The notes: a model not told the origin generated them from the sequence alone. Shown: positions 4,214 through 60,864, counted from the stretch's first letter. The stretch is DNA of 64,000 nucleotides from an uncultured Pyrinomonadaceae bacterium (GCA_964236735.1 CAXSFM010000001.1:122015-186014); one strand, 5' to 3'. Translations and numbers: made by a program.

Positions 4214-4286
4214 GTCAGTACCGCCTGCGGTAGCGGGCGGGTACTTACGTTGCAGACACCCGCCCGCTACCGCAGGCGGTACTGAC
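4214..4286. repeat. Perfect 29-bp inverted repeat (15-nt loop) in the spacer between the histidine-phosphatase gene and nnrD
   Basis: gtcagtaccgcctgcggtagcgggcgggt / acccgcccgctaccgcaggcggtactgac are exact reverse complements. No U-tract follows. Confidence 0.9.
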
Positions 4287-7999: not shown

Positions 8000-8662
8000 T
8001 TGACAGCCGCCGCATTCTACGACCTAGAGGGCACGCTCGTGAGCACCAATCTCGTGCATACGCTCGGCTTCTACGCGCGCAACCAGCAAGGTTTGCTCCG
8101 CAGCATTCGCAAGAGCGCCGCCACGCTCGTCAGCCTGCCCGTCTTCGCCGTCACGGATCAGGTCAGCCGCATGGTCTTCAACGACATGTTTTTCAAACGC
8201 TACAAAGGCGAATCCGAAGACCGTCTCCGTTACTTCGCCGGAGACTTGTTCGAGAAAGTGCTCAAGCCCGCCATCTTTCCCGGCTCGTTCGAGTTGATCG
8301 AAAAGTCGCGCAGCCTCGGACTCCGGCAAGTGGTTGTGACAGGCGCGCTCGACATCTCGGTTGAGCCGCTGATGAAGCACTTGGGAATTGACGACTACGT
8401 GGCAAATCGTCTTGAATTCGTCAACGGCGTCGCGACGGGACGACTGCTCCCGCCCGTGCTCGCCTCCGCGACGAAGGCTTCGTGGATACGCACCTACGCC
8501 GAGCGCGAGAAAATCAATCTCAACGAATCCTTCGCATACAGCGACAGCATGAGCGATTTGCCCATGCTCTCCATCGTCGGACACCCGGCGGCGGTCAACC
8601 CCGACATGCGCCTCAAACAGACGGCGCTTCATCACGACTGGCCGATACTGAATTTGAAGTGA
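8000..8662 (+). CDS. HAD-IB family hydrolase (phosphoserine-phosphatase-like)
   Basis: DLEGTL motif I near the N-terminus and a later HAD motif. TTG start preceded by a GGAGGA ribosome-binding site. Confidence 0.7.
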   Translation: MTAAAFYDLEGTLVSTNLVHTLGFYARNQQGLLRSIRKSAATLVSLPVFAVTDQVSRMVFNDMFFKRYKGESEDRLRYFAGDLFEKVLKPAIFPGSFELIEKSRSLGLRQVVVTGALDISVEPLMKHLGIDDYVANRLEFVNGVATGRLLPPVLASATKASWIRTYAEREKINLNESFAYSDSMSDLPMLSIVGHPAAVNPDMRLKQTALHHDWPILNLK

Positions 8663-8735
8663 TGAGTGATGAGTGATGAGTGATGAGTAAAGAAATTTTG
8701 CTCTCACTCATCACTCATCACTCATCACTCATCAC
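8659..8735. repeat. Intercistronic hairpin: (GTGATGA)x4 arm, 17-nt loop, (TCATCAC)x4 arm
   Basis: Exact 30-nt arms. The left arm contains the TGA stop of the HAD gene; the right arm ends 10 nt before the ATG of the next gene. Same repeat unit as the hairpin at 49114-49188. Confidence 0.9.
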
Positions 8736-8744
8736 TTAATAAAG

Positions 8745-10343
<1,599 letters not shown>

Positions 10344-10367: not shown

Positions 10368-10940
10368 ATGAGTACGACTCGCATAATTACTGCTGACGAT
10401 TTGTTAGTCATGCCTCATCGTGATAGGCACGGCAATGATTGCCGACTTGAGTTGATTCACGGAGAGGTAAAGACGGCATCGCTCAATTCAATGGCACATG
10501 GCGTACTCTGCGTAAGACTTGCAACCGCCGTCAGTAATTTTGTTGAAGCGCACGAGCTAGGCGTTGTCTTCGCTACAGGGACAGGATTTCTCGTGGAGCA
10601 GAATCCTGATACGGTGTACGGCGTAGATGTCGCGTTTGTGAGCCACAAGCGGTTGAAGGCAGTCAATAATCTCGAAAAGTTCATTCCCTTTGCGCCCGAT
10701 TTAGCTATAGAAGTTTTGGGCATGAACGATACGATTTACGAAATGGATGAGAAGATCGCTTTCTACTTTGCCGCCGGTTCGCGCCTTGTGTGTATCATCA
10801 ATCCGAAGCGTCGCACGGTTGCGGTTTATACTTCGACGCTTGACGTGCGTATTTTCGACGGCAGCGACACGCTCGACGGCGGCGACGTTTTGCCGGGCTT
10901 CAAACTTGAGCTTTCCAGACTATTTGCCAACTTAAAATAG
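10368..10940 (+). CDS. Uma2 family endonuclease (DUF820, restriction-endonuclease-like fold)
   Basis: Typical Uma2 features: PDLAIEVLG... motif region and size (~190 aa). Confidence 0.7.
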   Translation: MSTTRIITADDLLVMPHRDRHGNDCRLELIHGEVKTASLNSMAHGVLCVRLATAVSNFVEAHELGVVFATGTGFLVEQNPDTVYGVDVAFVSHKRLKAVNNLEKFIPFAPDLAIEVLGMNDTIYEMDEKIAFYFAAGSRLVCIINPKRRTVAVYTSTLDVRIFDGSDTLDGGDVLPGFKLELSRLFANLK

Positions 10941-10969: not shown

Positions 10970-13900
10970 ATGAAATTATCTCCGACAGAAATTTATCACG
11001 ATAGGAAAGTCTTCATCATCGGCGCGACCGGCTTCGTCGGCAAAGTCGCGCTCTCGATGCTGCTCGACCGCTTCCCCGGCGTCGGGCGCGTCTATGTCAC
11101 CGTGCGCGCTCGCTCGAAGGAAGAATCCGAGACGCGCTTCTGGAACAACGTCATCACCTCGCCGCCGTTCGATCCGATTCGCACACGCTACGGCGCGGCC
11201 TTCGAGGATTTCATCCGCGACAAAGTCCGCATCGTCAACGGCGACATCGGCGAAGACAATCTTGGCCTTACGGAAGAAGACGCGCAAGCTGTCGCCGACG
11301 ACATTGACGTGATCATCAACAGCGCGGGCAACGTCACTTTCAACCCGACGCTTGAAAGCGCGCTACGCACGAACGTCGTCGGCACACAGAACGTCATCCT
11401 GTTTGCCAAACGGATGAAGCGTCCCGCGCTCGTCCACATCTCGACGTGCTTCGTCGCGGGCAATCGTTCCGGGCCGGTGTGGGAGAGCGATCCGGTCGTT
11501 GGATACTTTCCGCGACGCGAGGAGATTCCCGGCGTCGAGTTTTCGGCGGAGCAGGAAATACGCGACTGCGCGAAACTGGCCGACCGCGTGCGCGAAGAGG
11601 CGCGCGATGCTTTGCAGGCCGCGCGCTTTCGTGAGAACGCGCGCAAGCGCCTTATCGAAGAGGGACGCAACCCCGACGACCTCGACGCGATGGGCTTGGC
11701 CGTCGCGCGCGAGCGCAAAATCTGGACGCGCGAGCGTCTGACGGAACTCGGCATCGAGCGCGCGGAGTTCTGGGGCTGGCCGAATATTTACACCTACACG
11801 AAGAGTCTCGGCGAACAACTCGTCGCCGCCGAGACGGATGTCGTGCGCGCCATCGTGCGCCCGTCCATCGTCGAGTCGGCCATCAAATTTCCCTTCCCCG
11901 GCTGGAACGAAGGCTTCACGACAACCGCGCCGCTCATCTTCATCGCGCTCAAAGGCCAGACGCAGATTCCCGTCAACGAAAAGTTGATTCTCGACATCAC
12001 GCCCGTTGATCAAGTCGCCGCCGTGATGCTCGCCGTCGCGGCGGAAGCGTGCGTGCGCGAGCCGCGCCTCGTCTTTCAGGCCGCGACCGGCGACAGCAAT
12101 CCGAACGACATGGAGCGCATCGTCGGCTTACTCGGTCTCTACAAGCGACAGCATTTCCAGGATAAGGAAACCGGCTTCCGAATCGTCAATGCCATCGCCG
12201 GGCGCATGGAAGCGCGTCCCGTCACGCCTTCGCGTTTTGATAAAACCTCGACGCCGATGGTCAACGCGGCGGCGAAGAAAGTTTCCTCCTTACTCGAACG
12301 CGCGCGCCCGCGTTGGGGCGGCGGTCGCCTGACCGATGTCATTGACAGCGCGCGTCAACAAATTGATCGTCTCGAAGAACTGACGCACGAAACCAAAGAA
12401 GCGTTCGAGATGTTTCGTCCCTTCATGGTCGAGAATGCTTACGTCTTCCGCGCCGACAACGTGCGCTCGCTCTTCGCGCAAATTCGTGCGGACGAGCGGC
12501 AACTGCTGACGTGGAACCCGGACAAGTTCGATTGGTACGACTACTGGATGCACGTCCATTTTCCGGGCTTGCAGAAATGGGTTTTCCCGACGCTCGAAGA
12601 AGACATGCGCGCGCAGCCGAAGCGCGCTTACACCTATCGCGATTTGCTCGAACTCTTCGAGACTTCGACGAAACGTTTCAGCACGCGCGTCGCCATGCGG
12701 ATCGAGCGCGACGGGCAGAAAGAGCAATACACCTACGCCGACTTGCAGGAACTGGCGACGCGCGCCGCCGCCTTCTTCGCCAGTCGCGGAGTCAAGCCGG
12801 CGGACAGAGTCGTGCTCGCCAGCCACAATGCGCCCGAATGGGGCATGAGTTATTTCGGCGTCCTCAAAGCCGGCGCGACGTGCGTGCCGGTTGACCCTGA
12901 AAGCTCGACGGAGGAACTCGTCAACTTCGTGCGCGCGAGCGGCGCGGTCGGAATTATCATCAACGCGAAAGTTGACGAGGCGCACGCAGACCTCGCCGAT
13001 GCGCTGACTCTCGCGGGACTGACAGTGACGCAAATCTGGCGGACGGCTGAGGTTTTCGAGTTAACCGACGAGGCGATGGAAGACGCGCGCATCGCACTGC
13101 TTCCCAGCCGCGTGACGGCGAACACGACGGCCTCTCTCATCTTCACTTCGGGCACGACGGGACAGCCGAAGGGCGTCATGCTCACGCACAAGAATCTGAC
13201 CAACATGGTCTCGATGCTCTCGTCCGTCTTCGACATGGACACGAGCGACGGCGTGCTCTCCGTGCTTCCGCTTTATCACACGTTCGAGTTCTCGACCGGC
13301 TTCCTAACGCCGTTCAGTCGCGGCACGCAGATAACTTATCTCGAAGAATTAAACAGCGACGAACTGGCGCGCGCCGTCAAAGACGGGCACGTCACGGGAA
13401 TGGTCGGCGTGCCCGCTTTGTGGGAGTTGCTGCATCGCCGCATCAACAATCGCTTGCACGAAAACAACGTCTGGGTCGGACGCGCGGCGGACATTATGAT
13501 GAGCGCGAACGGCTGGCTGCGCGACAATACGCCGCTTAATCTCGGACAAATTCTCTTCCGCCCGATTCATCAGGGACTCGGCGGGCACATCCGATATTTC
13601 ATCAGCGGCGGCTCGTCTCTCAATGAAAAAGTGAAGCGCGACATGCACCAACTCGGCTTCACCATCCTCGAAGGCTACGGGCTGACCGAAGCCTCGCCGG
13701 TGCTGACCGTCACGCGCCCGCAGAATCGCCTGATGCGGACGAGCGTCGGCAAGGCTCTGCCCGGCGTTGAACTCCGCATCAACGACGCGGACGCGAGCGG
13801 CGTCGGCGAAGTCGTCGCGCGCGGGCCCAATGTGATGGCCGGTTATTTTCAAAACGAGGAGGCGACCAAACTCGCGCTCATCAATCGCTGGCTCTACACG

Positions 13901-15439
13901 GGCGATCTCGGACGCCTTGATGATGAAGGCAATCTCTATCTCGTCGGACGCTCGAAAGAAATCATCGTTGACACGAACGGCAAGAATGTTTACCCGGACG
14001 AGATCGAAGAGTTGTACAGCGATTCGCCGTTTATCGAAGAGATCGGCGTCGTCGGTTTGACGGAGAGCGTCGGCGAAAAAATCGCCTGCATCGTCGTCCC
14101 GAACTACGATCACGACATCGCACTTTCGCGTGATGAAGTGCGCCGCAAAATCGAAAATCATTTCCGCGACGTGTCTTCGACGCTTCCCTTTTATAAGCGC
14201 GTCAAGTCGCTCTATTTCACGGACAGTGAACTGCCGCGCACGCCGACGAAGAAGGTCAAGCGGCGCGAAGTCGTCAAGATTATCGAATCGCTCGAAGAAA
14301 GTTTGCGTGCGGGATTGCGTGAAGGCGGCGCGGAAACTGCGTCGGCAACAACGTCAGGCAAGCGACAGAGCGATGCGGGTTGGCTCCTTGATGTCGTCGC
14401 CACCGTCGCCAACAAGCCACGCGCGCAAGTCACGCTCGATACGCGCCTCGCCGAACTCGGCTTCGATAGTTTGATGTTCGTCGAGCTTGCTTCTTCAATC
14501 GAAGGCGCGGGAGGCACGCTCACCTCGCCCGACTCGCTCAACGAAGTGCAAACCGTGCGCGAACTGCAAACGGTCGTCACGCGCAAACCGACCGTTGCCG
14601 AGCGACGCGCCGCAGAAGCGCGCGCCGCAGAAGAATTGCGCGAGGACGACGCGGAAATTTTCATTCCTTCCGTTGTCCGCACGGTCGGCAACAAAGGTCT
14701 CGATTATTTACAGAGTCTCTTTTATCAAAAGTTCCTGCACACGCAGGTCGAAGGCGAGACGAACATTCCCGTCCATACGAATTTCATCGTCGCCGCCAAC
14801 CACTCTTCGCACCTCGACATGGGACTCGTCAAAATGGCGCTCGGCGAGCAGGGGCGCGACATGGTGGCGCTCGCCGCCGCCGATTATTTTTTCGACAACA
14901 AATACAAGCGCGCCTACATGGACAACTTCACGAACCTCGTGCCCATTGAGCGTTCGGGCAGCCTTCGCAAGTCGCTCCGCCACGCGCGCTCGTTCCTTGA
15001 GCGCGGCTACACAGCCCTCATCTTCCCCGAAGGCACGCGCTCGATGACGGGCGAGTTGGACGAGTTCAAGCCCATCATCGGCTATCTCGCGCTCTCAACA
15101 CGGACGGGAATTTTACCGCTTCATTTGCAGGGCACTTACGCGGCGATGCCGAAAGGCTCGAACGTTATCAAGAGCCGCGAGGTGGGCGCGCGCGTCGGTC
15201 ATTTCCTTTCCATCGAAGAACTCGAAGACCTAACGCACGGGATGCCGAAGTCAGAGGCGTACCGTCTCGTCGCCGCGCTCGTCCATCACGAGATTGAAAA
15301 CTTGCGCGACGGCACGCGCCACGCTTTCGACGCCAAGTCGCTGCGCCGACGCTGGCGCACGGAGCGACGCGCCGCCGCACACGAAGAGACGGGTGACGAG
15401 ACGACACATGACGACACCTTCATTGCGACCGGCGACTGA
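10970..15439 (+). CDS. Multidomain lipid-biosynthesis enzyme: fatty-acyl reductase (NAD_binding_4) - AMP-dependent ligase - ACP - 1-acyl-sn-glycerol-3-phosphate acyltransferase (ElbD-like)
   Basis: N-terminal IGATGFVGK plus YTYTK reductase motifs. Central AMP-binding LIFTSGTTGQPKGVMLTHKNL. Phosphopantetheine site LGFDSLMFVEL. C-terminal acyltransferase HxxxxD (NHSSHLD) and FPEGTRS. Confidence 0.85.
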   Translation: MKLSPTEIYHDRKVFIIGATGFVGKVALSMLLDRFPGVGRVYVTVRARSKEESETRFWNNVITSPPFDPIRTRYGAAFEDFIRDKVRIVNGDIGEDNLGLTEEDAQAVADDIDVIINSAGNVTFNPTLESALRTNVVGTQNVILFAKRMKRPALVHISTCFVAGNRSGPVWESDPVVGYFPRREEIPGVEFSAEQEIRDCAKLADRVREEARDALQAARFRENARKRLIEEGRNPDDLDAMGLAVARERKIWTRERLTELGIERAEFWGWPNIYTYTKSLGEQLVAAETDVVRAIVRPSIVESAIKFPFPGWNEGFTTTAPLIFIALKGQTQIPVNEKLILDITPVDQVAAVMLAVAAEACVREPRLVFQAATGDSNPNDMERIVGLLGLYKRQHFQDKETGFRIVNAIAGRMEARPVTPSRFDKTSTPMVNAAAKKVSSLLERARPRWGGGRLTDVIDSARQQIDRLEELTHETKEAFEMFRPFMVENAYVFRADNVRSLFAQIRADERQLLTWNPDKFDWYDYWMHVHFPGLQKWVFPTLEEDMRAQPKRAYTYRDLLELFETSTKRFSTRVAMRIERDGQKEQYTYADLQELATRAAAFFASRGVKPADRVVLASHNAPEWGMSYFGVLKAGATCVPVDPESSTEELVNFVRASGAVGIIINAKVDEAHADLADALTLAGLTVTQIWRTAEVFELTDEAMEDARIALLPSRVTANTTASLIFTSGTTGQPKGVMLTHKNLTNMVSMLSSVFDMDTSDGVLSVLPLYHTFEFSTGFLTPFSRGTQITYLEELNSDELARAVKDGHVTGMVGVPALWELLHRRINNRLHENNVWVGRAADIMMSANGWLRDNTPLNLGQILFRPIHQGLGGHIRYFISGGSSLNEKVKRDMHQLGFTILEGYGLTEASPVLTVTRPQNRLMRTSVGKALPGVELRINDADASGVGEVVARGPNVMAGYFQNEEATKLALINRWLYTGDLGRLDDEGNLYLVGRSKEIIVDTNGKNVYPDEIEELYSDSPFIEEIGVVGLTESVGEKIACIVVPNYDHDIALSRDEVRRKIENHFRDVSSTLPFYKRVKSLYFTDSELPRTPTKKVKRREVVKIIESLEESLRAGLREGGAETASATTSGKRQSDAGWLLDVVATVANKPRAQVTLDTRLAELGFDSLMFVELASSIEGAGGTLTSPDSLNEVQTVRELQTVVTRKPTVAERRAAEARAAEELREDDAEIFIPSVVRTVGNKGLDYLQSLFYQKFLHTQVEGETNIPVHTNFIVAANHSSHLDMGLVKMALGEQGRDMVALAAADYFFDNKYKRAYMDNFTNLVPIERSGSLRKSLRHARSFLERGYTALIFPEGTRSMTGELDEFKPIIGYLALSTRTGILPLHLQGTYAAMPKGSNVIKSREVGARVGHFLSIEELEDLTHGMPKSEAYRLVAALVHHEIENLRDGTRHAFDAKSLRRRWRTERRAAAHEETGDETTHDDTFIATGD

Positions 15440-16641
15440 TGAAGCCGGCGACAAACCAAATCAACGACACGATGCCAACCAAACGCCGCGCGCCAACTAA
15501 AACAGCAACGCCGAAAAAAGCGACGAAGGCTCCTATCAAAGCCGCTGCCAAATCCGTCGTCGAATCCACCAAGCGCAAGCCTGCGACGAAAAAATCCGCC
15601 GCTGTCAAGACGCTCGCGAAGCGGCCTCGTCCCGTCACGCTTGTCACGGGCGGGACGGGTTTTCTCGGCCAGCATCTCGTGCGCCTGCTCGTCGCGGAAG
15701 GCGTCGAGAACGTGCGCGTGTTCTCGACCTCGGCTCCTTCGTGGCTCTCGGAAAGCGGCGTCGAATCCATTCAAGGCTCAATCACTTCGCCGCAGGATGT
15801 AGCGCGTGCGGTCGAGGGCGTCGCGGAGATTTATCATCTGGCGGGCCGCGTCTCGCTTAACAAGGAAGACGCGCACGAGATGTTCGCGCTCCACGTCGAA
15901 GGCACGCGCGTACTCTGTCAGGCAGCGGCGACGGCGGGAGTGAAAAGTATCGTCATGGCTTCGACGAGCGGCACGGTGGCTGTCACGGAGACGGGCGATG
16001 TCGTGCCGGATGAAGACTGGCCGACGCCGCTTGAGATTATCTCGCGCTGGCCTTACTACGCGAGCAAGCTGTATCAGGAAACGGTCGCGCGCGAAAAATT
16101 TGCGGGCGACGGGCGGCGGCTCGTGATCGTCAATCCGAGTCTCCTACTCGGCCCCGGCGATGAGCGTCTCAGTTCGACGAAAGTCGTGCTCGATTTTCTC
16201 GCGCGCAAAATTATGTCCGTGCCGAAAGGCGGTCTGAGCTTCGTGGACGTGCGCGATGCGGCGCGCGCGCTGTTGGCGGCGATGGAGCGCGGCGCAGATG
16301 GCGAGCGTTATTTGCTCGGCGCAGCCAACTGGACGTTCAATGATTTTTTCGGACGGCTCGAACGCATCACCAAAGTCGCCGCCCCGCGCCTGACGCTTCC
16401 GTCAAAACTCGCCGTCAACGGCGCGAAAGGTTTGAACGCGCTCTTCCGTCACTGGAAACTCACGCCGCCCGTCGAGCCGGTCGAAGTGGAAATGGCTGAC
16501 TACTTCTGGTATCTGGATGCGTCGAAGGCTGTGCGTGATTTAGCGTTCGCGCCGCGCGATCCATCCGAGACTCTGTTCGAGACTGTCACTTACGTGCGCG
16601 AAAATTTTCTCGATAATGCAGCCTTCAGCCGCGCCGTTTGA
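15439..16641 (+). CDS. NAD-dependent epimerase/dehydratase family (extended SDR) protein with Lys/Ala/Pro-rich N-terminal tail
   Basis: VTGGTGFLGQHLV Rossmann motif and YYASK catalytic dyad. Start codon overlaps the stop of the upstream gene (ATGA), suggesting translational coupling. Residues 1-65 are low-complexity K/A/T/P. Confidence 0.75.
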   Translation: MKPATNQINDTMPTKRRAPTKTATPKKATKAPIKAAAKSVVESTKRKPATKKSAAVKTLAKRPRPVTLVTGGTGFLGQHLVRLLVAEGVENVRVFSTSAPSWLSESGVESIQGSITSPQDVARAVEGVAEIYHLAGRVSLNKEDAHEMFALHVEGTRVLCQAAATAGVKSIVMASTSGTVAVTETGDVVPDEDWPTPLEIISRWPYYASKLYQETVAREKFAGDGRRLVIVNPSLLLGPGDERLSSTKVVLDFLARKIMSVPKGGLSFVDVRDAARALLAAMERGADGERYLLGAANWTFNDFFGRLERITKVAAPRLTLPSKLAVNGAKGLNALFRHWKLTPPVEPVEVEMADYFWYLDASKAVRDLAFAPRDPSETLFETVTYVRENFLDNAAFSRAV

Positions 16642-16648
16642 ACAGAAT

Positions 16649-17593
16649 TTAGAGCGGGCATCTCACGCGCAGCGCGAGCGGCAGAATTTCAAATCGTGCG
16701 GGCAAACGTCCGACTAATTCGCCGTCAACTTCCAACTCAACATCTTCATTTGAAGCCGCACGCACCGCGACTTTTCGCGCGCATGCGTGGCGCACATCTT
16801 TCATTCCGAGATGCGTGCCGAGATAGACGCGGTACGAATTCGCCAGTATCGAAAGCGGGCTGAGATCGCCGATGGCGACGACATCGAACGCGCCGTCGTT
16901 AACTTTCGCTTCGGGCGCGACGCGCATTCCGCCGCCGAAATATTGCGCGTTCGCCACGCAGAAATTCGTCACCGTCAGGCGCGACTCCGCGCCTTCATCC
17001 AAACGCACATGCACCGCAGGCTTCTCGAAGGTCAGCGTCTCCTTGAGCGCCGCCGACGCGAAGGATAATTTGCCGCCGCCGAGCAGTCGCGACGCGCCGG
17101 ACGAGAGCAACTTATCTTCCTTGACGCGCCTGACGACCGCGCCGCCTATTCCGCACGAAGCGACGTTGATAAAGTGTCGCGTCTCTTCCGCGCCCGCCTC
17201 GTTGACAAAAGTGACGCGCCCCGCATCCATCAGTCGCGTCCGCCCATTTTTCAAAACCTGCGCCGCTTCCGCTCCGCGCGTCGCTATTTTCAGAGTGCGA
17301 CGAAAATCTCCGCCCGTCCCGCTCGGCAAGATTCCCAACTCCGCGCCCGCGCCCGATTGAAGAATGCCATCCGCGACTTCCGAGATCGTCCCATCGCCTC
17401 CGCAAGCGATAATGAAGCGACGGCCTGACTCTGCCTCGCGTCGTGCGATAGAAGATGCGTCGCGACTCGCTTTCGTGAAGGCGCAATTAAACGCACCGAA
17501 GTGCCGCCGCAAATCGCTGGCAAGTCCCGGCCATGCCGCGCCGGTCGCGCCGCCTGCGGATGCGGGATTGATGATGACGAGCGGCAGAGGCAT
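16649..17593 (-). CDS. Diacylglycerol-kinase-catalytic-domain lipid kinase (YegS/BmrU-like)
   Basis: IINPASAGG ... ACGGDGT ... GGG motifs of the DAGK_cat family. Start placed at the internal Met (MPLPLVIINP), since the longer track ORF begins inside the 17607-17660 hairpin. Confidence 0.7.
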   Translation of the reverse strand: MPLPLVIINPASAGGATGAAWPGLASDLRRHFGAFNCAFTKASRDASSIARREAESGRRFIIACGGDGTISEVADGILQSGAGAELGILPSGTGGDFRRTLKIATRGAEAAQVLKNGRTRLMDAGRVTFVNEAGAEETRHFINVASCGIGGAVVRRVKEDKLLSSGASRLLGGGKLSFASAALKETLTFEKPAVHVRLDEGAESRLTVTNFCVANAQYFGGGMRVAPEAKVNDGAFDVVAIGDLSPLSILANSYRVYLGTHLGMKDVRHACARKVAVRAASNEDVELEVDGELVGRLPARFEILPLALRVRCPL

Positions 17594-17606
17594 CAAAATT
17601 TTCTTA

Positions 17607-17660
17607 GCGTCTTTGCGCCTTTGCGTGAAAATCATTGCTCACGCAAAGGCGCAAAGACGC
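17607..17660. repeat. Intercistronic hairpin (22-nt arms) between the PlsC-like gene and the lipid-kinase gene
   Basis: gcgtctttgcgcctttgcgtga / tcacgcaaaggcgcaaagacgc are exact reverse complements with a 10-nt loop. Confidence 0.9.
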
Positions 17661-17682
17661 AGTTAAGACACAAGAGAAATCA

Positions 17683-18588
17683 TCAGGAACTGGCGCGAAA
17701 AGTTGACGAGGCGATGGTTGTTTGTCGCTTCGCTTCCGCCAGACGCGCGGCGCGATCCTGCTCGCCGAGTTCGGCGATCTTGCTCATCACGTAGTCCGCG
17801 ATTTCTTTGTACGTGCGGACTGAGTCTCGCCGCTCAAGATAGTCCGCGAAGTCGAGAGCTTCTCCGAAGTGGATGCGTATGTGTTCGCCGCCGCGCCAGT
17901 TGCCGAGCACTTGCTGCGGAAGGTCATTGCTAAGTCCAGCGATGAAGACGGGAATAACCTGCGGGTTCGCTTCCTTGATAAGTTTGCCGATGCCCGGCTG
18001 CGGGCGCAGGTACGTGTACGGGTCGTCGTTTTTGTTGCGCGTGCCTTCAGGGTGAAAGCCGATGATGTGCCCTTCGCCTTCGCGACAGAGTTGCGCCAGC
18101 AGCCGCAGCGAATATTTATCAAAGTCGCGCTTGTCTGTGAGCGGGTTTTCACCCGACGCGAAAAACGGCGGGTACATAGACCACCAGCCCATCAGGAAGT
18201 TGACGATGAGGCCGAGCGGCGAGTCGTAGAAAAAACGCCCGCGCACGGGAAAGAAAAGTTTTTTTCGCCAGCGCGTTCGTCGAAAGAGCACGCTTGAGAC
18301 GGCGTAGAGATCGAAGAATGAGCGATGGTTAGCGACGAGCAGCAGCGGGCGTTCGTGCGAGACGGACTCGACGTGTTCGAGGCCATAGACGCGCATGATG
18401 TTGTAAGTGGCGAGGTGTATCCAGCCCGCGCCGAAGATACGCTGGCAGAAAGTCCAGAGACGTTTCCAACCGCCCTCATTCATCCGGCGCGTGAAGCGGA
18501 AAGCGAAACGCTCGAAGCCCGACAAGACGCGCAGCTCATCCGGCGTCGGCTCTAATCTCTCAATATTTTTCTGCGTTGTGCTCATCAA
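17683..18588 (-). CDS. 1-acyl-sn-glycerol-3-phosphate acyltransferase (PlsC-like lysophospholipid acyltransferase)
   Basis: HxxxxD motif NHRSFFD and HPEGTRN, ~300 aa. Confidence 0.8.
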   Translation of the reverse strand: MMSTTQKNIERLEPTPDELRVLSGFERFAFRFTRRMNEGGWKRLWTFCQRIFGAGWIHLATYNIMRVYGLEHVESVSHERPLLLVANHRSFFDLYAVSSVLFRRTRWRKKLFFPVRGRFFYDSPLGLIVNFLMGWWSMYPPFFASGENPLTDKRDFDKYSLRLLAQLCREGEGHIIGFHPEGTRNKNDDPYTYLRPQPGIGKLIKEANPQVIPVFIAGLSNDLPQQVLGNWRGGEHIRIHFGEALDFADYLERRDSVRTYKEIADYVMSKIAELGEQDRAARLAEAKRQTTIASSTFRASS

Positions 18589-18592
18589 AAAA

Positions 18593-18658
18593 GTTCAAGG
18601 TTCAAGATTCAAAGTTAATGATGCGCCAACTTTGAAGTTTGAACTTTGAACCTTGAAC
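18593..18658. repeat. Intercistronic imperfect hairpin built from GTTCAAG-like heptamers, between metH and the PlsC-like gene
   Basis: gttcaaggttcaagattcaaagtt ... aactttgaagtttgaactttgaaccttgaac. The arms are complementary, with one extra repeat unit on the 3' side. Confidence 0.8.
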
Positions 18659-18664
18659 TCGATT

Positions 18665-22285: not shown

Positions 22286-22586
22286 CATCTCGAAAGCCTG
22301 ATGATCGCGTGCCTTCTCGTGGAAGACTGCGCCGATGCTGTTTAGCGGTTTATTTTACGTGGCCGCAAGTCGCCTTAACTCACCACGTTTGCCCGTTATT
22401 GAAACATCGCGTGCCGGTCATGTCAAGAGAGGCTTTTGATATGGCGAGCCGGTCGTTTGTTTCTCTTTGAGATGAAGTGTCACGTCTTTCGCGCGTGCGT
22501 CTCGACATTGTTCTAGCATCCTTGCCTGTGCTAATTTCCAACTGTTCTTCGGCTTCAAACTTTGGATGAGGTCACCTGCCAAACAC

Positions 22587-23075
22587 ATGCGCCGCGCCAT
22601 CTATCCCGGCTCCTTCGACCCTGTCACCAACGGGCATCTCGACATCATCGAGCGCGGCTGCAAGCTCTTCGACGAAATCATCATCGCCATTCTCGTCCAC
22701 CCGGAAAAGAAACCGCTCTTCACCGTCGGCGAGCGTCAGGAGATGCTCGAAGATGTGTTGACGAAAATCAAAAGCGGCAACTGTCAACTTCACGTTGATT
22801 CGTTTCAGGGACTTTTGGTGAAGTATGCAATCGAGCGTGAAGCCGACGCCATCGTGCGTGGCATCCGCGCGATTTCCGACTACGAATACGAGTTGCAGAT
22901 GGCCTTGATGAACCGTCGTCAAGAGCCGGGCATCGAGACGGTCTTTATGATGGCGGCAGAGGCTTATTCTTACGTCAGTTCGCGCCTCGTCAAAGAGGTC
23001 TATCAACTCGGCGGCACTATCGAGGGACTCGTCCCTGCCACTGTCGAAGAGCAGATGAAACAAAAGTTTAATTAG
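22587..23075 (+). CDS. coaD: Phosphopantetheine adenylyltransferase
   Basis: [18 protein letters not shown] (HxGH nucleotidyltransferase motif), ~160 aa. Start at MRRAIYPG. Confidence 0.9.
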
Positions 23076-24494: not shown

Positions 24495-25934
24495 TCAGTA
24501 AATATTGAAATTGTATTCGAGCGCGATGTATTGCGAGACGTTGCGCCCGTCCTTCTGCGCGGGCTGGAACTTGATACTCTTCGCCGCCGTGATGGCGCGC
24601 TCCGTCAATCCGTCCGGCAAGCCCTGTATGACGCTGATGCTCGTCACCGTTCCCGTCGCGCTCAACACGACGCGCAGCCTGACGAGGCCGGTGACGCCGT
24701 TCTTGCGCGCCTCTTCGGTGAAGCCCGGCTCCGGCCTCGACGTGATGACAGCCTTGCGCGTCACTTCATCTCGCCTGAAAACGCGATGATAGTCTTCCGG
24801 TGCGCTGCCACCCGGCCCGCCGGGGCCGCCCGTTCCGTATTGTGGGTCGCCACCACCTGTGTTCTCGCCGCGACCGTGGCCGTAGCCTTTGCCCTGCCCT
24901 GCCCCCTGCCCGCTCCCGTCGCCTGTGCCCTGACCGCCGCCCGTCCCCGAACCATCCGAAGGAATTTGCGAAAGCGATTTCGGGTCGCCGAAGGGAATCT
25001 GTCGCGGGTCTTCCGGCAACAGCAACGGATCGCCCTTGAGCGTCGGCATGACCGCGAGCGCAGGATTCTTGACCGTCGGCTGTCGCACGTTCGGCGCGAT
25101 GAGTTGATCGCTCATGCTGCCGGGCGCGATCTTGCCCTTTGAGGTCGGCAGCGAGTTGAGATTGCCGCCGCCACCGCCGCCTCCCGGTCTTTCATGGTTT
25201 TGCATCGAGCCGCCGCCCTTGCCATGACTCAGCCCGGCTGCGCCCGTCTCCGGCGTCGCTTGTTCTTTCGGGATGATGTTGCCGTTCACCCACTCGACGA
25301 CTTCCAAATCGTTTCGCTTTGTGTCGGCGTAAAACTGCTCGCAACGCCCGCCGAAATGAGACATGAACAGGCAACGATTGGCGACGGCCATCCAGACGCT
25401 GCCGATAAAAAGCAGCAGGCACATCGGGACGAGCAGCGCGGGCGCGGTATGCTCGCGCGCGAGAAAGCTTGCCCCAAGTTGGCCGTAGCCGGCGAACATG
25501 CGCCCCGTGAATCCGAACGGGTCGCGCTTAAATTCAGGCCACGTCAATTCCGATGAGCGCGCCACCGATGTGAGTTCGACGACGAGTCGCCGCAGCAGTC
25601 CTGTGTCTTCGAGAATGGTCAGACTGTAATCACGACGCGCGACAAAAACGGCGGCGTGCGCCGTCTCTTGCCAGAGGTTTAGTTGAATCTCTTGTGCCAT
25701 ACGTTTCGACAACCTTTCTTCATAACCCGTCCAGAAATTTTCCGCAGGGGAGACCGCTTCAATCGCATGGTCGAAAACTCTCAACGTCTGTGACAGCGAA
25801 CGATACTGGCTGAGACAAGCAGGACACTGTGACGCCTCCGCGAGCAGATGCCGCCCGCGCTCCGCGTCAAGCTCATCGAAGAGCATGTCAACCAACTTTT
25901 CCTGCGTCTCTAAGCAAACGTGCATCTTTATCAC
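24495..25934 (-). CDS. Anti-sigma factor (zf-HC2-like N-terminus, single TM, Gly-rich linker) fused to a TonB C-terminal domain
   Basis: N-terminal H-x3-C...CPAC zinc-finger pattern, one hydrophobic helix (ALLVPMCLLLFIGSVWMAV), a long G-rich linker, and a C-terminus (VTGLVRLRVVLSATGTV...QYIALEYNFNIY) matching the TonB_C fold pattern. Immediately downstream of an ECF sigma gene. Confidence 0.65.
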   Translation of the reverse strand: MIKMHVCLETQEKLVDMLFDELDAERGRHLLAEASQCPACLSQYRSLSQTLRVFDHAIEAVSPAENFWTGYEERLSKRMAQEIQLNLWQETAHAAVFVARRDYSLTILEDTGLLRRLVVELTSVARSSELTWPEFKRDPFGFTGRMFAGYGQLGASFLAREHTAPALLVPMCLLLFIGSVWMAVANRCLFMSHFGGRCEQFYADTKRNDLEVVEWVNGNIIPKEQATPETGAAGLSHGKGGGSMQNHERPGGGGGGGNLNSLPTSKGKIAPGSMSDQLIAPNVRQPTVKNPALAVMPTLKGDPLLLPEDPRQIPFGDPKSLSQIPSDGSGTGGGQGTGDGSGQGAGQGKGYGHGRGENTGGGDPQYGTGGPGGPGGSAPEDYHRVFRRDEVTRKAVITSRPEPGFTEEARKNGVTGLVRLRVVLSATGTVTSISVIQGLPDGLTERAITAAKSIKFQPAQKDGRNVSQYIALEYNFNIY

Positions 25935-25941
25935 TCCGGCA

Positions 25942-26574
25942 TCAACGACTCTCTAAAACAATCAACGCCCCGTCTTCCGACTCTTCGGCGACGACGCCCA
26001 ACGTTGCGCGCAACTTCAGCACCGCGCGGAACAGAGACTTCTTGACGCTGCCCGTCGAGCAACCGAGCGATTCGGAAATCTCCTGATACGTCATGCCCTC
26101 TTCATGCTTCAGCAAAAACATCAGACGCTGCTGCGGAGTCAACCCGGACAACGCGCCCATCACACGCCCCGCGAGTATCTTCCGTTGAAAGATGTCCTCC
26201 GTCTCCGCCAACTGTGAGCCGTGCGAGCGCATAGGCATCGCATCAACTTCGTCGAGATTCTCGAACCTGATGGGCGCACGCACATTTCCCTGCGACAACG
26301 TTTCCGCGCGACGGTCGTTGAGGAAAGTGTGAATCGTGATGCGTCGCAGCCATGTGTAGAAACTCGCTTCCGCGCGAAAGCCGCCGAGCGCTTTGAAGGC
26401 TTTCAGCCAGACATCCTGCGACAAATCTTCCGCGTCGTGCCGGTCGCGGCAATAGTGCAGCGCGAGCGTGTAGATGCGCCGCTCGTAATGTCTTGCGAGT
26501 TGGCAGAACGCCTCGGCGTCGCCCTCTTGCGCGCGCCTGATGAGATCGTCTTCGCCCGTAATGACCATGAACAT
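25942..26574 (-). CDS. RNA polymerase ECF-type sigma-70 factor
   Basis: Region 2 (DLSQDVWLKAF, YTWLRRI) and region 4 (TYQEISESLGCSTGSVKKSLFRA) motifs, ~200 aa. Confidence 0.85.
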   Translation of the reverse strand: MFMVITGEDDLIRRAQEGDAEAFCQLARHYERRIYTLALHYCRDRHDAEDLSQDVWLKAFKALGGFRAEASFYTWLRRITIHTFLNDRRAETLSQGNVRAPIRFENLDEVDAMPMRSHGSQLAETEDIFQRKILAGRVMGALSGLTPQQRLMFLLKHEEGMTYQEISESLGCSTGSVKKSLFRAVLKLRATLGVVAEESEDGALIVLESR

Positions 26575-43576: not shown

Positions 43577-43751
43577 TCTTTATAGCGGTTGGCGATTGAG
43601 TGCGACATGAGAGAAAGAATTTTCACCACAGAGGACACGGAGGGGCACAGAGGCAGAACAGAGGAGACCATCAAACCTTTGTCTTTCCTCTGCGCCCCTC
43701 CGTGTCCTCTGTGGTCAATTCTCTGGCCGCATTCATTTGCAACCCGCAGTA
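43577..43751 (+). repeat. 175-bp structured repeat element, copy 2
   Basis: Same 5' and 3' terminal blocks as copy 1. The internal hairpin arms carry compensatory substitutions relative to copy 1. Confidence 0.7.
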
Positions 43752-43833: not shown

Positions 43834-45273
<1,440 letters not shown>

Positions 45274-48106: not shown

Positions 48107-49117
48107 TTGCCACGCACCTTCCTGATGAAGCGCAAGCTGCTCAACGTCACACGCCGAATTTTGATTCTGCTGCTCGTCGTGTGGACGGTGGTGTCTCTGG
48201 TGACTCTGCTGATAGAACTCGTGCCGGGCGATCCGGCGACGGCGATTCTCGGCGATCAAGCTCCGCCCGAAGCCATCGCGCAATTCCGCCACAAGCACGG
48301 ACTCGACCGCCCCGCTTTCTTTTTTACTTTTGACGAAGACGCGGCGGGCGCGAAACATCTGCGCTGGCACGGCGCGGACAATCGTTACGTCGAATACTGG
48401 CGCGCGCTGCTGCACGGCGACATGGGCAACTCGTTTCGCACAGACCGCCCCGTCCTCAATTTAATTCTGGCGCGCTACGCGGCGACGATTCAACTCGCCA
48501 TCGCCGCGCTGCTTGTCGCCGTCGCCATCGCCGTCCCGCTCGGAGTCGTCGCCGGAACGCATCACGGGAAACTGCTCGACAACTTTCTCTCCGTCGTCGC
48601 GCTCATCGGCATCAGCCTGCCGAGCTTCGTCATCGGGCCGTTTTTGATTTACCTCTTCGCCGTCTGGCTGGGCTGGCTCGACCCTTCAGGACGCTTCAGT
48701 TGGTCGAGCATCATCCTGCCCGCCGTCACGCTCGGTGCGGCGCTCTCCGCTTTGCTCACGCGCATGGTGCGCTCGTCCGTCATTGAAGAGATGGGCGAAG
48801 ACTACGTCCGCACGGCGCGCGCGAAAGGCTTGAGCGAGCGGAAGGTCGTGTACAAGCACGTCCTGAAAAATGGTTTGATTCCGGTCGTGACGATTCTCGG
48901 ACTGCAACTCGGCGTGCTGCTCGCCGGCGCGATCATCACCGAAAAGATTTTCAACTGGCCGGGACTCGGCCTCTTGCTCGTTGACGACGGCATCGGCAAA
49001 CGCGATTACCGTCTCGTGCAGGGCTGCGTCCTCGTCATCAGCGTCACATACATTCTGGCGAACTCGCTGACCGACATGCTTTATCGCCGGCTCGACCCCA
49101 GAATACGAATACAGTGA
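48107..49117 (+). CDS. ABC transporter permease, DppB/OppB-like (binding-protein-dependent type)
   Basis: Six TM segments, EAA-like loop region (ARAKGLSERKVVYKHVLKN) and LIELVPGDPA N-terminal motif typical of OppB/DppB. True start may be the Met at 48125. Confidence 0.8.
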   Translation: MPRTFLMKRKLLNVTRRILILLLVVWTVVSLVTLLIELVPGDPATAILGDQAPPEAIAQFRHKHGLDRPAFFFTFDEDAAGAKHLRWHGADNRYVEYWRALLHGDMGNSFRTDRPVLNLILARYAATIQLAIAALLVAVAIAVPLGVVAGTHHGKLLDNFLSVVALIGISLPSFVIGPFLIYLFAVWLGWLDPSGRFSWSSIILPAVTLGAALSALLTRMVRSSVIEEMGEDYVRTARAKGLSERKVVYKHVLKNGLIPVVTILGLQLGVLLAGAIITEKIFNWPGLGLLLVDDGIGKRDYRLVQGCVLVISVTYILANSLTDMLYRRLDPRIRIQ

Positions 49118-49188
49118 TGAGTGATGAGTGATAAGTGACAAGATAAAACCTGTCTTTCACTCATCACTCATCACTCATCACTTATCAC
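49114..49188. repeat. Intercistronic hairpin built from GTGATGA units, between the two permease genes
   Basis: gtgatgagtgatgagtgataagtgacaag ... cactcatcactcatcactcatcacttatcac. The left arm includes the TGA stop of the upstream permease; the right arm ends 9 nt before the next ATG. Confidence 0.85.
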
Positions 49189-49197
49189 TGCTTTCAT

Positions 49198-50013
49198 ATG
49201 AACCGTCTCGCCATCGCCGGACTCGTCTTCATCGCCCTGCTCGTCGTGGTGGCTCTGTTCGCGCCGCTCATCGCGACGCATGACGTGGGAGCGACAAATC
49301 TCGCCGCGCGTTACCTTTCGCCTTCCTCGGCGCACTGGCTTGGCACTGATGCGACCGGGCGCGACATTTTTTCGCGCGTCGTCTTCGGTGCGCGAATCTC
49401 GCTGCGCGTCGGCGTCGTCGTCGTGCTCGTCTCCGGCATCATCGGCACTGTTATCGGCGCGCTCGCGGGTTATTACGGCGGGTGGATTGACAGCATCGTT
49501 TCGGGTTACGTCTTCAACGTCTTTCTCGCGTTTCCCGGCTTGCTGCTGGCGATTGCGATGGTGGCTTTTCTCGGCGCGGGCTTGAACAAATTGATCCTCG
49601 CGCTGTGCGTGATCGGTTGGGTCGGCTACGCGCGCCTGATTCGCGGGCAAGTGCTGAAGGTGCGCGAGTACGACTTCGTGCAGGCCGCACGCGCGCTCGG
49701 CGCACGCGACTGGCGAATCATCTTCGTCCACATTCTGCCGAACGCGATTCAACCGCTCATCGTGCAAGCGAGCCTCGGCATGGCGGGCGCGGTTCTGTCT
49801 GAGGCGTCGCTTTCGTTTCTCGGTCTTGGCGTGCCGCCGCCCGCTCCATCGTGGGGCGTGATGCTCGAAGAGGCGCGCGACTTGACGACTTTACGCATCG
49901 CTCCGCACGCGCTCATCGTGCCCGGCCTCGCGATTGCGCTGACTGTGCTGGCCTTCAACTTTCTCGGCGACGGGCTGCGCGAATATCTCGACCCGCGACA
50001 ACGACGGCGTTAA
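49198..50013 (+). CDS. ABC transporter permease, DppC/OppC-like
   Basis: N-terminal extracytoplasmic segment then five TM segments. ARALGARDWRIIFVHILPNA EAA-motif region. Confidence 0.8.
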   Translation: MNRLAIAGLVFIALLVVVALFAPLIATHDVGATNLAARYLSPSSAHWLGTDATGRDIFSRVVFGARISLRVGVVVVLVSGIIGTVIGALAGYYGGWIDSIVSGYVFNVFLAFPGLLLAIAMVAFLGAGLNKLILALCVIGWVGYARLIRGQVLKVREYDFVQAARALGARDWRIIFVHILPNAIQPLIVQASLGMAGAVLSEASLSFLGLGVPPPAPSWGVMLEEARDLTTLRIAPHALIVPGLAIALTVLAFNFLGDGLREYLDPRQRRR

Positions 50014-51997: not shown

Positions 51998-52087
51998 CAG
52001 TGGGCAGTGGCTAGTGGTCAGTAGTTACGTGACTTGCAAAATTGAAACAACTGCTCTACTCACTGACCACTAGCCACTGTCCACTGT
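51998..52087. repeat. Intercistronic imperfect hairpin built from CAGTGG(G/C) units, between the ABC-2 permease and the HDAC-like gene
   Basis: cagtgggcagtggctagtggtcagtag ... ctactcactgaccactagccactgtccactg. Starts 5 nt after the upstream stop and ends 6 nt before the next ATG. Confidence 0.85.
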
Positions 52088-56800: not shown

Positions 56801-56894
56801 TTTGTGCCGACGGGTTCGCGCGTCATGTCATGGATTATCTTTATTGCTTAAGCAGCAACGACGTGAGCGGTGCGCCAGCTATTTTCAGGCAATA

Positions 56895-56952
56895 GCAAAA
56901 AGGCAAAAGTGAAGATGGAGAGCGAACTCCTTCTCTTCACTTTTGCCTTTTT
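56895..56952. terminator. Bidirectional hairpin terminator between the convergent STAND and roadblock genes
   Basis: gcaaaaaggcaaaagtgaaga ... tcttcacttttgccttttt with T/A runs on both sides. Confidence 0.6.
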
Positions 56953-56981
56953 ACTTCTGCCTTAAAGGAAAGCAGCTTTGC

Positions 56982-59197: not shown

Positions 59198-59463
59198 ATT
59201 TTCATCCTTCAAGGCATCACCGGCAGAAAACCGCCACGCGCTAACGCTCGTTCGAGCGACTACCCTTGTCACCCTTCTAAGCGCGCGCCGCACAATGCGG
59301 AACGCTGCAAGTCATGTTGTCAAAAAAGACTCACTGGCAGCGGGGCTGAATCGCCCCTGACTGTTTCGTGGAGTGTTGGAATGAGGGACAGTCGTCCGGG
59401 CAGCCGTTGTCGCCTGGGCGCAAGTTCTCAGGCTTTTTCGCGCGACCACACGGCTTGAAAAAC

Positions 59464-60135
59464 TTAAGGCTTTTTGGTCTCCGACGTTTTCACTACTTTC
59501 AGTGCGGCAGAGTCTGTTGAAGCGTCCTCTTCTTTTGCAGAACGCTCTTCCTTCTTGGCTTTGGTCTCGGTCATCGAATCCGCGACGGCATCGGCCTGAC
59601 GCAGAGGTTTCGTGTCCACCGCGACTTCATGGCGACCGTCATTCCAGACTGTCTCGCGTCGAAAGACGAGACGTGTTTCTTCGATGGCGACCAGCATCCC
59701 GTCGTAAAACTTTTCACCCGGATAGATCACGTAAGAGAGATTGATCGGCGTGGCCTGCACCATCGCGGCGTAACCGCGCGGCGTGCGGAAAATTCCCGTC
59801 ACCTGTATCTCCGCGAGCGTGATGGCCGTCGTCGGCTTCGGCGCGGGTTGCTGCATGTTCATCGCCGCCAGCTTCTTCGCTTTGTACTGCGCGATCCGTA
59901 CCTGGATGTCGGGAACCGGAATCGGCGCGACGACTTTTTTCGCGACGGCGCGCTTGACGGGCGGTTTGTATTTTTTGAACGGATCATTCTTCGCTGAACT
60001 GTAAGGCTTGTTCGCCGCATCCTGCGCGCTGGCGGCGGTCGCTCCGCAAAGGACGAGCACACCGGCGGTGAAAATTCCGTAGAGCGTCTGGCGCAACTTG
60101 TTATTGTTTTCTTTCATGTTTTTTGTTCCTGACAA
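59464..60135 (-). CDS. pilP: Type IV pilus assembly protein PilP-like
   Basis: Signal peptide, beta-rich core (ITLAEIQVTGIFRTPRGYAAMV), and its position between pilO and pilQ. Confidence 0.5.
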   Translation of the reverse strand: MSGTKNMKENNNKLRQTLYGIFTAGVLVLCGATAASAQDAANKPYSSAKNDPFKKYKPPVKRAVAKKVVAPIPVPDIQVRIAQYKAKKLAAMNMQQPAPKPTTAITLAEIQVTGIFRTPRGYAAMVQATPINLSYVIYPGEKFYDGMLVAIEETRLVFRRETVWNDGRHEVAVDTKPLRQADAVADSMTETKAKKEERSAKEEDASTDSAALKVVKTSETKKP

Positions 60136-60165
60136 TTGTTCTCTCTTCGGGCTGGCAGCGAAAAT

Positions 60166-60819: not shown

Positions 60820-60864
60820 TGCTTTTATGTTCCTTTTCGGACTCGTGTCGAGTGCCCCGGATGC

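Follow-up and report, generated by a model that had tools for sequence, protein, structure and literature searches.

The 64,000-nucleotide (nt) stretch considered here, from an uncultured Pyrinomonadaceae bacterium (GCA_964236735.1, contig CAXSFM010000001.1), carries a lipid locus centred on a gene for a large multifunctional enzyme resembling ElbD of the myxobacterial ether-lipid (elb) cluster. All coordinates are those of the whole stretch, hereafter the window, and L-numbers designate the loci of relatives that were compared with it. The first-pass annotation, made from the sequence alone, had delimited a compact locus at positions 10,970 to 18,588 and placed the big gene at its head. However, two conserved partner genes, coding for a HAD phosphatase and a LarA-like protein, are found upstream, beyond that span. 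The genes of the locus can be listed as follows, with amino acids abbreviated aa, short-chain dehydrogenase/reductase SDR and open reading frame ORF:

8000..8662, plus strand: HAD-IB phosphatase, elbB-like, 220 aa (Pfam HAD PF12710, 9.6e-32)
8745..10343, plus strand: protein of the LarA / nickel-pincer-nucleotide superfamily at the elbC position, 532 aa (Pfam Lar_N PF09861, 1.5e-37)
10368..10940, plus strand: Uma2-family nuclease-like gene, 190 aa (Pfam Uma2, 1.2e-25)
10970..15439, plus strand: elbD-like multifunctional enzyme, 1489 aa (Pfam and motifs)
15439 (ORF opens; probable start 15472) to 16641, plus strand: elbE-like extended SDR (Pfam Epimerase 1.9e-31, 3Beta_HSD 6.6e-21)
16649..17593 (listed ORF to 17635), minus strand: YegS/DgkB-type soluble lipid kinase (Pfam DAGK_cat PF00781 5.3e-25, YegS_C PF19279 1.6e-29)
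17683..18585, minus strand: PlsC-family acyltransferase, about 300 aa (Pfam Acyltransferase PF01553, 3.9e-13)

The HAD, LarA-like, ElbD and SDR genes are colinear on the plus strand, their contiguity being broken by the one Uma2 gene. Upstream of the elbB-like gene lie a 143-aa ORF without family, an Exo_endo_phos protein and an opposite-strand classical SDR of the adh_short type; elbA, a second NAD-dependent epimerase gene upstream of elbB, is not found at the window locus. Since ElbA is dispensable in Myxococcus xanthus, its lack does not exclude membership of the elb family of clusters.

The elbD-like gene is a single unbroken frame of 1489 codons in which Pfam recovers all four modules in one chain, as had been proposed from motifs. 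The N-terminal fatty-acyl reductase (FAR) module comprises NAD_binding_4 (residues 17-353, 1.2e-55; nt 11018-12028) and the FAR C-terminal domain Sterile (residues 456-539; nt 12335-12586). It is followed by a ligase module with AMP-binding (residues 563-960, 1.5e-79; nt 12656-13849) and AMP-binding_C (residues 1011-1095; nt 14000-14254), a carrier module with PP-binding (residues 1138-1199, 9.8e-11; nt 14381-14566) around Ser1167, and an acyltransferase module with PF01553 (residues 1258-1384, 5.4e-20; nt 14741-15121) containing H1278 and D1283. Every motif quoted earlier for this protein can be located, namely GATGFVGK (18-25), YTYTK (274-278), TSGTTGQPKG (726-735), GFDSLMF (1164-1170), NHSSHLD (1277-1283) and FPEGTRS (1352-1358). 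The GxxGxxG and YxxxK motifs of the reductase, TSGTTGQPKG and the C-terminal lysine motif of the ligase, the DSL serine of the carrier, and HX4D and EGTR of the acyltransferase are all intact. In an alignment of 18 sequences with 28-60% identity, the catalytic residues of the four domains are invariant or at least 90% conserved; these include G18, G21, S158, Y274 and K278, the ligase core motifs, D1166 and S1167, H1278 and D1283, and P1353, E1354 and G1355. Selection therefore acts on all four activities. A frameshift or pseudogene is ruled out by the intact frame and by a 100% identical protein encoded on a contig that was assembled independently. Among solved structures, those closest to the enzyme are a fatty acyl-CoA reductase (7eoz), FadD13 (3r44) and PlsC (5kym). 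The reductase-first arrangement, which had been regarded as unusual, is also that of M. xanthus ElbD, where a FAR1-like domain is N-terminal and is followed by acyl-CoA synthetase (ACS), acyl carrier protein (ACP) and 1-acylglycerol-3-phosphate acyltransferase (AGPAT)-like domains (PMC9131029), and this published order rules out a novel one.

Homologues of this enzyme are numerous. After the identical record, the next 119 share 73-88% identity, have about 1408-1510 aa and display the same Pfam set, and those that carry names are assigned to Pyrinomonadaceae or Acidobacteriota. A search of 1.84 billion cluster representatives gives dozens of matches of 1350-1800 aa, covering query residues 1-1200 at 28-61% identity, and a profile search finds the same Pfam architecture in Gemmatimonadota, Planctomycetota, Latescibacteria, Handelsmanbacteria and other Acidobacteriota. 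Identity to full-length homologues in metagenome-assembled genomes (MAGs) of Myxococcota amounts to 38-54%; with tblastn, over about residues 2-1460, it is 38-39% in Polyangiaceae (L009, L016), 43% in Myxococcales (L011) and 40% in Bradymonadaceae (L008). No Myxococcus-labelled match is among those returned by a profile of GC-rich homologues, and orthology to the elb operon is based on the myxobacterial MAG loci together with the published gene order.

The neighbourhood of ElbD was compared by tblastn of the window proteins against 84 loci, obtained from a scan of a genome collection for the generic ligase motif EGYGLTE and from the contigs of individual homologues. Partners were then counted at the 17 full-length ElbD loci among the matches listed and at 67 generic-ligase control loci. 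A HAD protein is present within 10 kb at 13 of the 17 ElbD loci, a LarA-like protein directly upstream of ElbD at 12, an SDR after ElbD at 10 and a YegS-type kinase at seven. At the 67 controls, the HAD, LarA-like and kinase genes are never seen (0/67 each) and the SDR is seen twice, both times at truncated ElbD loci. The ElbD loci are not phylogenetically independent, so that Fisher values overstate the significance, but the contrast is clear nonetheless: the HAD, LarA-like, SDR and kinase partners are specific to ElbD loci.

The order HAD-LarA-ElbD-SDR on one strand is found in Pyrinomonadaceae (L001, L004, L010), in another Acidobacteriota locus (L006), in Myxococcales (L005, L011) and in Polyangiaceae (L009, L016). 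In Bradymonadaceae (L008) and in a Deltaproteobacteria MAG (L018), HAD-LarA-ElbD is present and no SDR was found, the L018 contig ending inside elbD. Searching from the LarA-like protein leads to the same block in Gemmatimonadaceae (L086), and a 4.5-Mb genome (L088) has the four elb genes in order, split by many small inserted genes. Altogether, the same elb order is found in at least 10 loci from three phyla (Acidobacteriota, Gemmatimonadota and Myxococcota). Within the block, the LarA-like protein is the best-conserved member (55-69% identity across phyla vs 38-54% for ElbD), being 67-72% identical to Gemmatimonadaceae and Polyangia proteins. Identity to the L001 counterpart reaches 84% for the elbB-like HAD protein, compared with 74% for ElbD; among solved structures, those closest to the HAD protein are SerB phosphoserine phosphatases.

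Downstream of elbD, the next gene codes for an extended SDR, as first annotated, with GGTGFLG at residue 71 and YYASK at residue 206. Two details of the earlier description of this gene need to be revised. The junction had been read as an ATGA overlap; it reads TGATG, in which the elbD stop (15437-15439) and the ATG at 15439 overlap by 1 nt. Moreover, the orthologues in Pyrinomonadaceae all start with M-x-T-K/T-K/R, and in the alignment this start coincides with Met12 of the window ORF. For this reason the real start is probably the ATG at 15472, 32 nt past the elbD stop, rather than 15439. The K/A-rich stretch, described as a tail, is N-terminal and not C-terminal: residues 1-66 contain 14 K, 12 A, 10 T and 8 P (window 15439-15636). 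This basic low-complexity extension of about 45-55 aa, conserved in character and not in sequence, is confined to Pyrinomonadaceae-type orthologues and absent from those of Myxococcota and other Acidobacteriota; one could guess that it binds membrane or a polyanion. The neighbours of the SDR in the PDB are 3wj7 and cinnamoyl-CoA, dihydroflavonol and methylglyoxal reductases. In the Gemmatimonadota locus L083 (7111-15906), a zinc alcohol dehydrogenase (ZnADH) stands in place of the SDR, an apparent non-orthologous displacement. Considering the reductases among the structural neighbours and this replacement, the role of ElbE would be a simple carbonyl reduction.

In M. xanthus, the operon elbABCDE corresponds to MXAN_1531-1527 (Lorenzen et al., 2014, as cited in PMC9131029 and PMC13012113). 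ElbA and ElbE belong to the NAD-epimerase family, ElbA being dispensable, ElbB is a HAD phosphohydrolase and ElbC has no known function (PMC9131029; PMC13012113). M. xanthus ElbD adenylates a fatty acid and loads its own carrier domain in vitro, alkyl and vinyl ether lipids decrease when elbD or elbE is disrupted, and elbD restores elbD mutants (PMC9131029). Furthermore, an iso-C15 aldehyde found in the wild type is gone in elbD mutants, and ether lipids are little affected when AGPS is lost (PMC9131029). Regarding the host, Pyrinomonadaceae belong to the class Blastocatellia, the former Acidobacteria subdivision 4. Cultured members of this subdivision make iso-C15 glycerol ethers and ether-bound iso-diabolic acid; in the cultured type species of the family, iso-branched glycerol ethers and membrane-spanning iso-diabolic acid account for more than 40% of the membrane lipid. 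Ger homologues are reported to be absent from cultured subdivision-4 species.

The FAR-ACS-ACP-AGPAT architecture, the full-length myxobacterial homologues, the gene order and the subdivision-4 host together support the reading as a candidate ether-lipid locus. We put at about 0.72 the probability that the window holds the Pyrinomonadaceae orthologue of the myxobacterial cluster elbB-elbC-elbD-elbE, with 1-O-alkyl glycerolipids as its likeliest product. These would most likely be monoalkyl glycerol ethers of iso-C15/C17 chains, and possibly also ethers of iso-diabolic acid. Since the host is without any reported CarF-type desaturase, alkyl ethers are expected rather than plasmalogens. That acidobacterial ElbD homologues have been proposed, and not proven, as an ether-lipid route was correctly stated in the first-pass annotation. 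According to citing papers, elb clusters in subdivision-4 Acidobacteria were reported by Sinninghe Damste et al. (2018); the elb cluster in this clade is thus already known, and the window is another instance of it.

A sequence of steps can be proposed by analogy with M. xanthus. The ligase of ElbD would adenylate a long-chain fatty acid and load it on its own carrier, as in vitro in M. xanthus, and the FAR domain would reduce part of the carrier-bound acyl pool to aldehyde, as suggested by the loss of the iso-C15 aldehyde in M. xanthus mutants. The carrier-bound chains may be split in this way between reduction by FAR and transfer by the AGPAT module to glycerol-phosphate or dihydroxyacetone phosphate (DHAP). 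ElbE would convert the aldehyde to the alcohol, or alkyl-DHAP to alkyl-glycerol-3-phosphate, and the C-terminal acyltransferase of ElbD would acylate glycerol-3-phosphate or DHAP. An enzyme other than AGPS would then swap the acyl for an alkyl chain, the LarA-like ElbC being the only conserved member without an assigned role. Finally, the HAD phosphatase, the kinase and the second acyltransferase may adjust the phosphate and the sn-2 chain.

Residue mapping of the LarA-like protein was made through a HMMER alignment to L. plantarum LarA (6c1w), with residue roles taken from PMC7583248, and extended to 12 orthologues from three phyla:

LarA D72: D88 in the window protein, conserved in orthologues
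LarA R75 (cofactor-binding arginine): M91 in the window protein, M/L/V in orthologues
LarA H108 (catalytic histidine): H130 in the window protein, invariant
LarA H174 (second catalytic histidine): Y195 in the window protein, Y/I/V/L/T in 12/12 orthologues
LarA K184 (cofactor-tethering lysine): K205 in the window protein, invariant
LarA H200 (nickel-binding histidine): H221 in the window protein, invariant

In LarA, H108 and H174 are the two catalytic histidines needed for racemisation or epimerisation (PMC7583248). The window protein reaches the NCBIfam model NF052592 (LarAH14/15/16) at 791 bits for a cutoff of 740, and its best PDB matches are the LarA-like nickel-pincer-nucleotide enzymes 9q2u and 9q3j. 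Because the H174 equivalent is lost, the protein is filed as a superfamily member and not as a racemase. A gluconate 2-epimerase function, as in the NCBIfam LarAH15 grouping, is not adopted either, the H174 equivalent being missing across the clade. In a survey of the LarA superfamily, 80-100% of Myxococcota species have a LarA homologue, which is consistent with elbC being LarA-like.

It is tempting to speculate that the LarA-like protein at the elbC position forms the ether bond independently of AGPS, a chemistry that we regard as unlikely. In this scheme, the tethered nickel-pincer cofactor would take up the hydride from C2 of 1-acyl-glycerol-3-phosphate for a time, leaving a transient ketone that lets the acyl chain be exchanged for the fatty alcohol provided by ElbD and ElbE, and would then give the hydride back on the same face. 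A nickel-pincer enzyme with a single catalytic base would not racemise but could still carry out such chemistry with the configuration retained, which the clade-wide loss of the second catalytic histidine would fit. The idea draws on the linkage to ElbD across three phyla, the exceptional conservation and the residue pattern. If true, it would account for how aerobic bacteria make ether lipids without AGPS.

Several points weigh against assigning the window to the ether-lipid pathway. Reductase or acyltransferase activity has been demonstrated for no ElbD, that of M. xanthus included (PMC9131029), and Pontiella has elbD homologues, yet ether lipids were not detected there. The ether-forming step is without an assigned enzyme, and the equation of elbC with a LarA-family protein is positional. 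Lastly, the kinase and second-acyltransferase genes follow metH on the strand opposite to elbD and could belong to the metH unit.

This last point leads to the alternative that survives best, namely that only elbB-E are functional in the pathway, the minus-strand kinase and PlsC-type acyltransferase being ordinary phospholipid genes held in place by family-level synteny. Both genes are confirmed as first described, by DAGK_cat with YegS_C and by PF01553, respectively. The kinase scores 137.1 bits against TIGR00147 (cutoff 118.65). The acyltransferase shows HX4D (NHRSFFD) and HPEGTR motifs and reaches no NCBIfam equivalog. Among the loci listed, the kinase-acyltransferase-metH synteny is seen only in Pyrinomonadaceae (L001, L003, L004), and in L001 metH, acyltransferase and kinase are tightly packed on one strand, 33-40 nt apart; a SAM-II riboswitch precedes metH. 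All this would suit a separate unit. However, the gene immediately before elbD, in the same orientation, codes for a YegS-type kinase in L083 (Gemmatimonadota) and L013 (a distant Acidobacteriota), and such a kinase is also found near ElbD in L015 (Phycisphaerae) and L005, in keeping with the counts of seven of 17 listed loci and none of the 67 controls. In L083 the rearranged cluster reads kinase-ElbD-HAD-ZnADH-Lar_N, with genes overlapping or abutting. Besides, according to a 2026 preprint, elb clusters of sponge symbionts carry diacylglycerol kinases and glycerol-phosphate acyltransferases nearby. The restriction of the pathway to elbB-E is accordingly held to be a real possibility, rated somewhat short of even; the kinase is likely linked to the elb cluster, and a link of the second acyltransferase is possible but weak.

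On this side of the locus, the acyltransferase and kinase genes are found downstream of metH (start 22288, minus strand) on the same strand, with hairpins between. The SAM-II (SAM_alpha) riboswitch (22321-22396, minus strand; 41.2 bits for a gathering threshold of 36) is directly upstream of metH. Beyond it, 22566-23075 (plus strand) codes for a 169-aa cytidylyltransferase-like protein (PF01467), probably of the CoaD type judging by its size, beside an aminotransferase gene; in L001 and L088, too, these two genes accompany the elb/metH region.

Returning to the elbB-E core, ElbD could also be viewed as an enzyme of fatty-acid salvage or lysophospholipid re-acylation, akin to a permuted Aas, whose alcohols and aldehydes would serve for wax esters or detoxification and from which no ether bond would arise. 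The ligase and acyltransferase halves do match NCBIfam PRK08633 (acyl-[ACP]--phospholipid O-acyltransferase), at 209 bits, far under the cutoff of 1221, and both the Pontiella case and the lack of a demonstrated FAR or acyltransferase activity (PMC9131029) are compatible with such a function. In contrast, mutating elbD deprives M. xanthus of ether lipids, a defect that elbD corrects (PMC9131029), and the cross-phylum linkage to a phosphatase, an SDR or alcohol dehydrogenase and a LarA-type enzyme is unneeded for simple re-acylation. Since the host clade is, in addition, rich in glycerol ethers and without Ger, this function appears quite unlikely.

A cluster akin to nonribosomal peptide synthetases (NRPS) that would make small amounts of a lipid for signalling or storage, much as Myxococcus makes the ether triglyceride TG-1 during development, instead of bulk membrane ethers or precursors of branched glycerol dialkyl glycerol tetraethers (GDGTs), might be suspected from the adenylation-carrier-reductase logic, from the retrieval of such clusters as biosynthetic gene clusters via antiSMASH (MIBiG BGC0000871), from adenylation-domain specificities that seem to differ between clades and from the fact that the membrane-spanning-lipid synthases Tes and Mss are not found among window ORFs of at least 180 aa, but it is highly improbable considering that the cluster is in essentially every Pyrinomonadaceae homologue set examined, that it has housekeeping-type neighbours (metH, the coaD-like gene, the aminotransferase) in stable synteny and that ether lipids are major membrane components of cultured relatives.

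The first-pass description of the hairpins at this locus holds in part. Two hairpins do occur in the flagged span, but the genes are not each separated by one, for there is none between the SDR and kinase genes, which are convergent and 7 nt apart. At the extended locus, three hairpins can be distinguished:

8657-8737, no strand: (AGTGATG)n heptamer hairpin between elbB and elbC, 32-bp perfect stem, -59.2 kcal/mol, z -12.7
17607-17660, no strand: hairpin between acyltransferase and kinase, 22-bp perfect stem, -46 kcal/mol, z -9.9
18590-18659, no strand: (GTTCAAR)n hairpin, then a T-run on the minus strand, -28.2 kcal/mol, z -4.6

Similar hairpins are found at about six other intergenic sites of the window, and relatives carry them at other junctions. 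The sites of this class in the window are 4214-4286, 8657-8737, 17607-17660, 18590-18659, 43622-43718, 49103-49199, 51998-52086 and 56883-56966; those in relatives are L001 14434-14506 and 15632-15767, L003 6807-6874 and L004 16600-16681. Most of their arms are tandem heptamers (AGTGATG, AATGATG, AGTGCTG, GTTCAAR and GGCGCAA-type), some, e.g., 4214-4286, being plain perfect inverted repeats, and the maximum of the class is 32 perfect base pairs and -59 kcal/mol. The AGTGATG motif of the 8657-8737 hairpin recurs at 49103-49199. The position of the 17607-17660 hairpin is not conserved, the corresponding junction in L001 having only 33 nt. The hairpins are a genome-wide class of heptamer-repeat elements and not a design of the locus; as a window-wide class found at different junctions in relatives, they are ruled out as locus-specific regulators. 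Because positions differ among related Pyrinomonadaceae genomes, the data suggest mobile or rapidly turning-over elements resembling repetitive extragenic palindromic (REP) sequences. We take them to resemble the heptamer repeats known as short tandemly repeated repetitive (STRR) sequences of cyanobacteria. The 18590-18659 hairpin is probably the metH terminator. Such hairpins also cause gene calls to be extended spuriously at the N-terminus. For the kinase, the listed ATG (17635) falls in a hairpin loop, and the start is likely at 17593.

Junctions of the elb genes likewise receive small genes. The Uma2 gene, seen at no other of the 84 loci compared, is a lineage-specific insertion outside the pathway. 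At the same elbC/elbD junction, L001 has an ORF6N gene (9318-9818) and L088 three other small genes. More generally, Blastocatellia-type genomes have hot spots at the elb junctions where small unrelated genes are inserted, the elb order being kept throughout; the inserts of L088 (4854-8731, 10609-12868 and 17276-19410) include a methyltransferase, a Y1 transposase, aspartic-protease-like ORFs and NspV.

Elsewhere in the window, a c-di-GMP-I riboswitch (62987-63080, minus strand; 54.4 bits for a gathering threshold of 35) is upstream of a type IV pilus set, pilM-pilN...secretin (57362-62646, minus strand). Two paralogous 479-aa proteins with a TonB_C domain and glycine-rich linkers (24495-25934 and 43834-45273, both minus strand) share 59% identity over 384 residues, the former coming after a gene for a sigma factor of the extracytoplasmic function (ECF) type (25942-26574). 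A scan for promoters and terminators gave counts at or below shuffle expectation and is uninformative.

Branched GDGTs and related ether lipids serve as proxies of past temperature and pH. As to how aerobic Acidobacteria make their ether bonds, the elb cluster is the standing candidate of the field for subdivision 4. The present comparison sharpens the parts list for reconstitution, with a four-gene core of phosphatase, LarA-type enzyme, ElbD and reductase in Acidobacteriota, Gemmatimonadota and Myxococcota. What it adds is a corrected cluster boundary, this cross-phylum core, the kinase linkage and an atypical LarA-type member; the atypical ElbC-type LarA homologue may be new as a lead.

When set beside known systems, the window is closest to the elb clusters of subdivision 4 (2018), which are the same cluster in the same clade with nothing substantively different. 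With elb of M. xanthus it shares the four-domain order, the neighbour order (HAD, middle gene, ElbD, SDR of the NAD-epimerase family) and full-length homology to myxobacterial orthologues. It differs from it in having no adjacent elbA, in the Uma2 gene between elbC and elbD, in the basic N-terminal extension of ElbE and in the appended lipid kinase and second acyltransferase. LarA lactate racemase has in common with the LarA-like protein the Lar_N fold, the tethering lysine, the nickel-binding histidine and one catalytic histidine, whereas the window protein diverges at H174 and R75, is about 100 residues longer and stands in a context of lipid synthesis rather than hydroxyacid metabolism.

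Among more distant systems, the eukaryotic peroxisomal pathway (FAR1, GNPAT, AGPS, alkyl-DHAP reductase) has in common with elb a reductase providing the alkyl donor, an acyltransferase for priming and an SDR reductase, and in FARAT, a fused FAR-GNPAT, reductase and acyltransferase are joined as in ElbD. Unlike these, ElbD adds its own ligase and carrier; M. xanthus elb is largely AGPS-independent, and no AGPS of the FAD-linked oxidase type is found among ORFs of at least 180 aa in the 64 kb of the window, any more than Tes, Mss, PlsA/Ger or the genes for biosynthesis of the LarA cofactor, larB, larC and larE. PlsA/PlsR and Ger, which reduce esters to ethers in anaerobes, lead to the same class of end products, alkyl or alkenyl glycerol ethers in bacteria, but they are unrelated oxygen-sensitive enzymes of the benzoyl-CoA reductase/HAD-activase type. 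Finally, Aas of E. coli is, like ElbD, a single protein with both a ligase that forms acyl-ACP and a PF01553 acyltransferase, but the two domains come in the opposite order, the ACP is unfused and there is no reductase. The PRK08633 score of ElbD stays well below the family cutoff.

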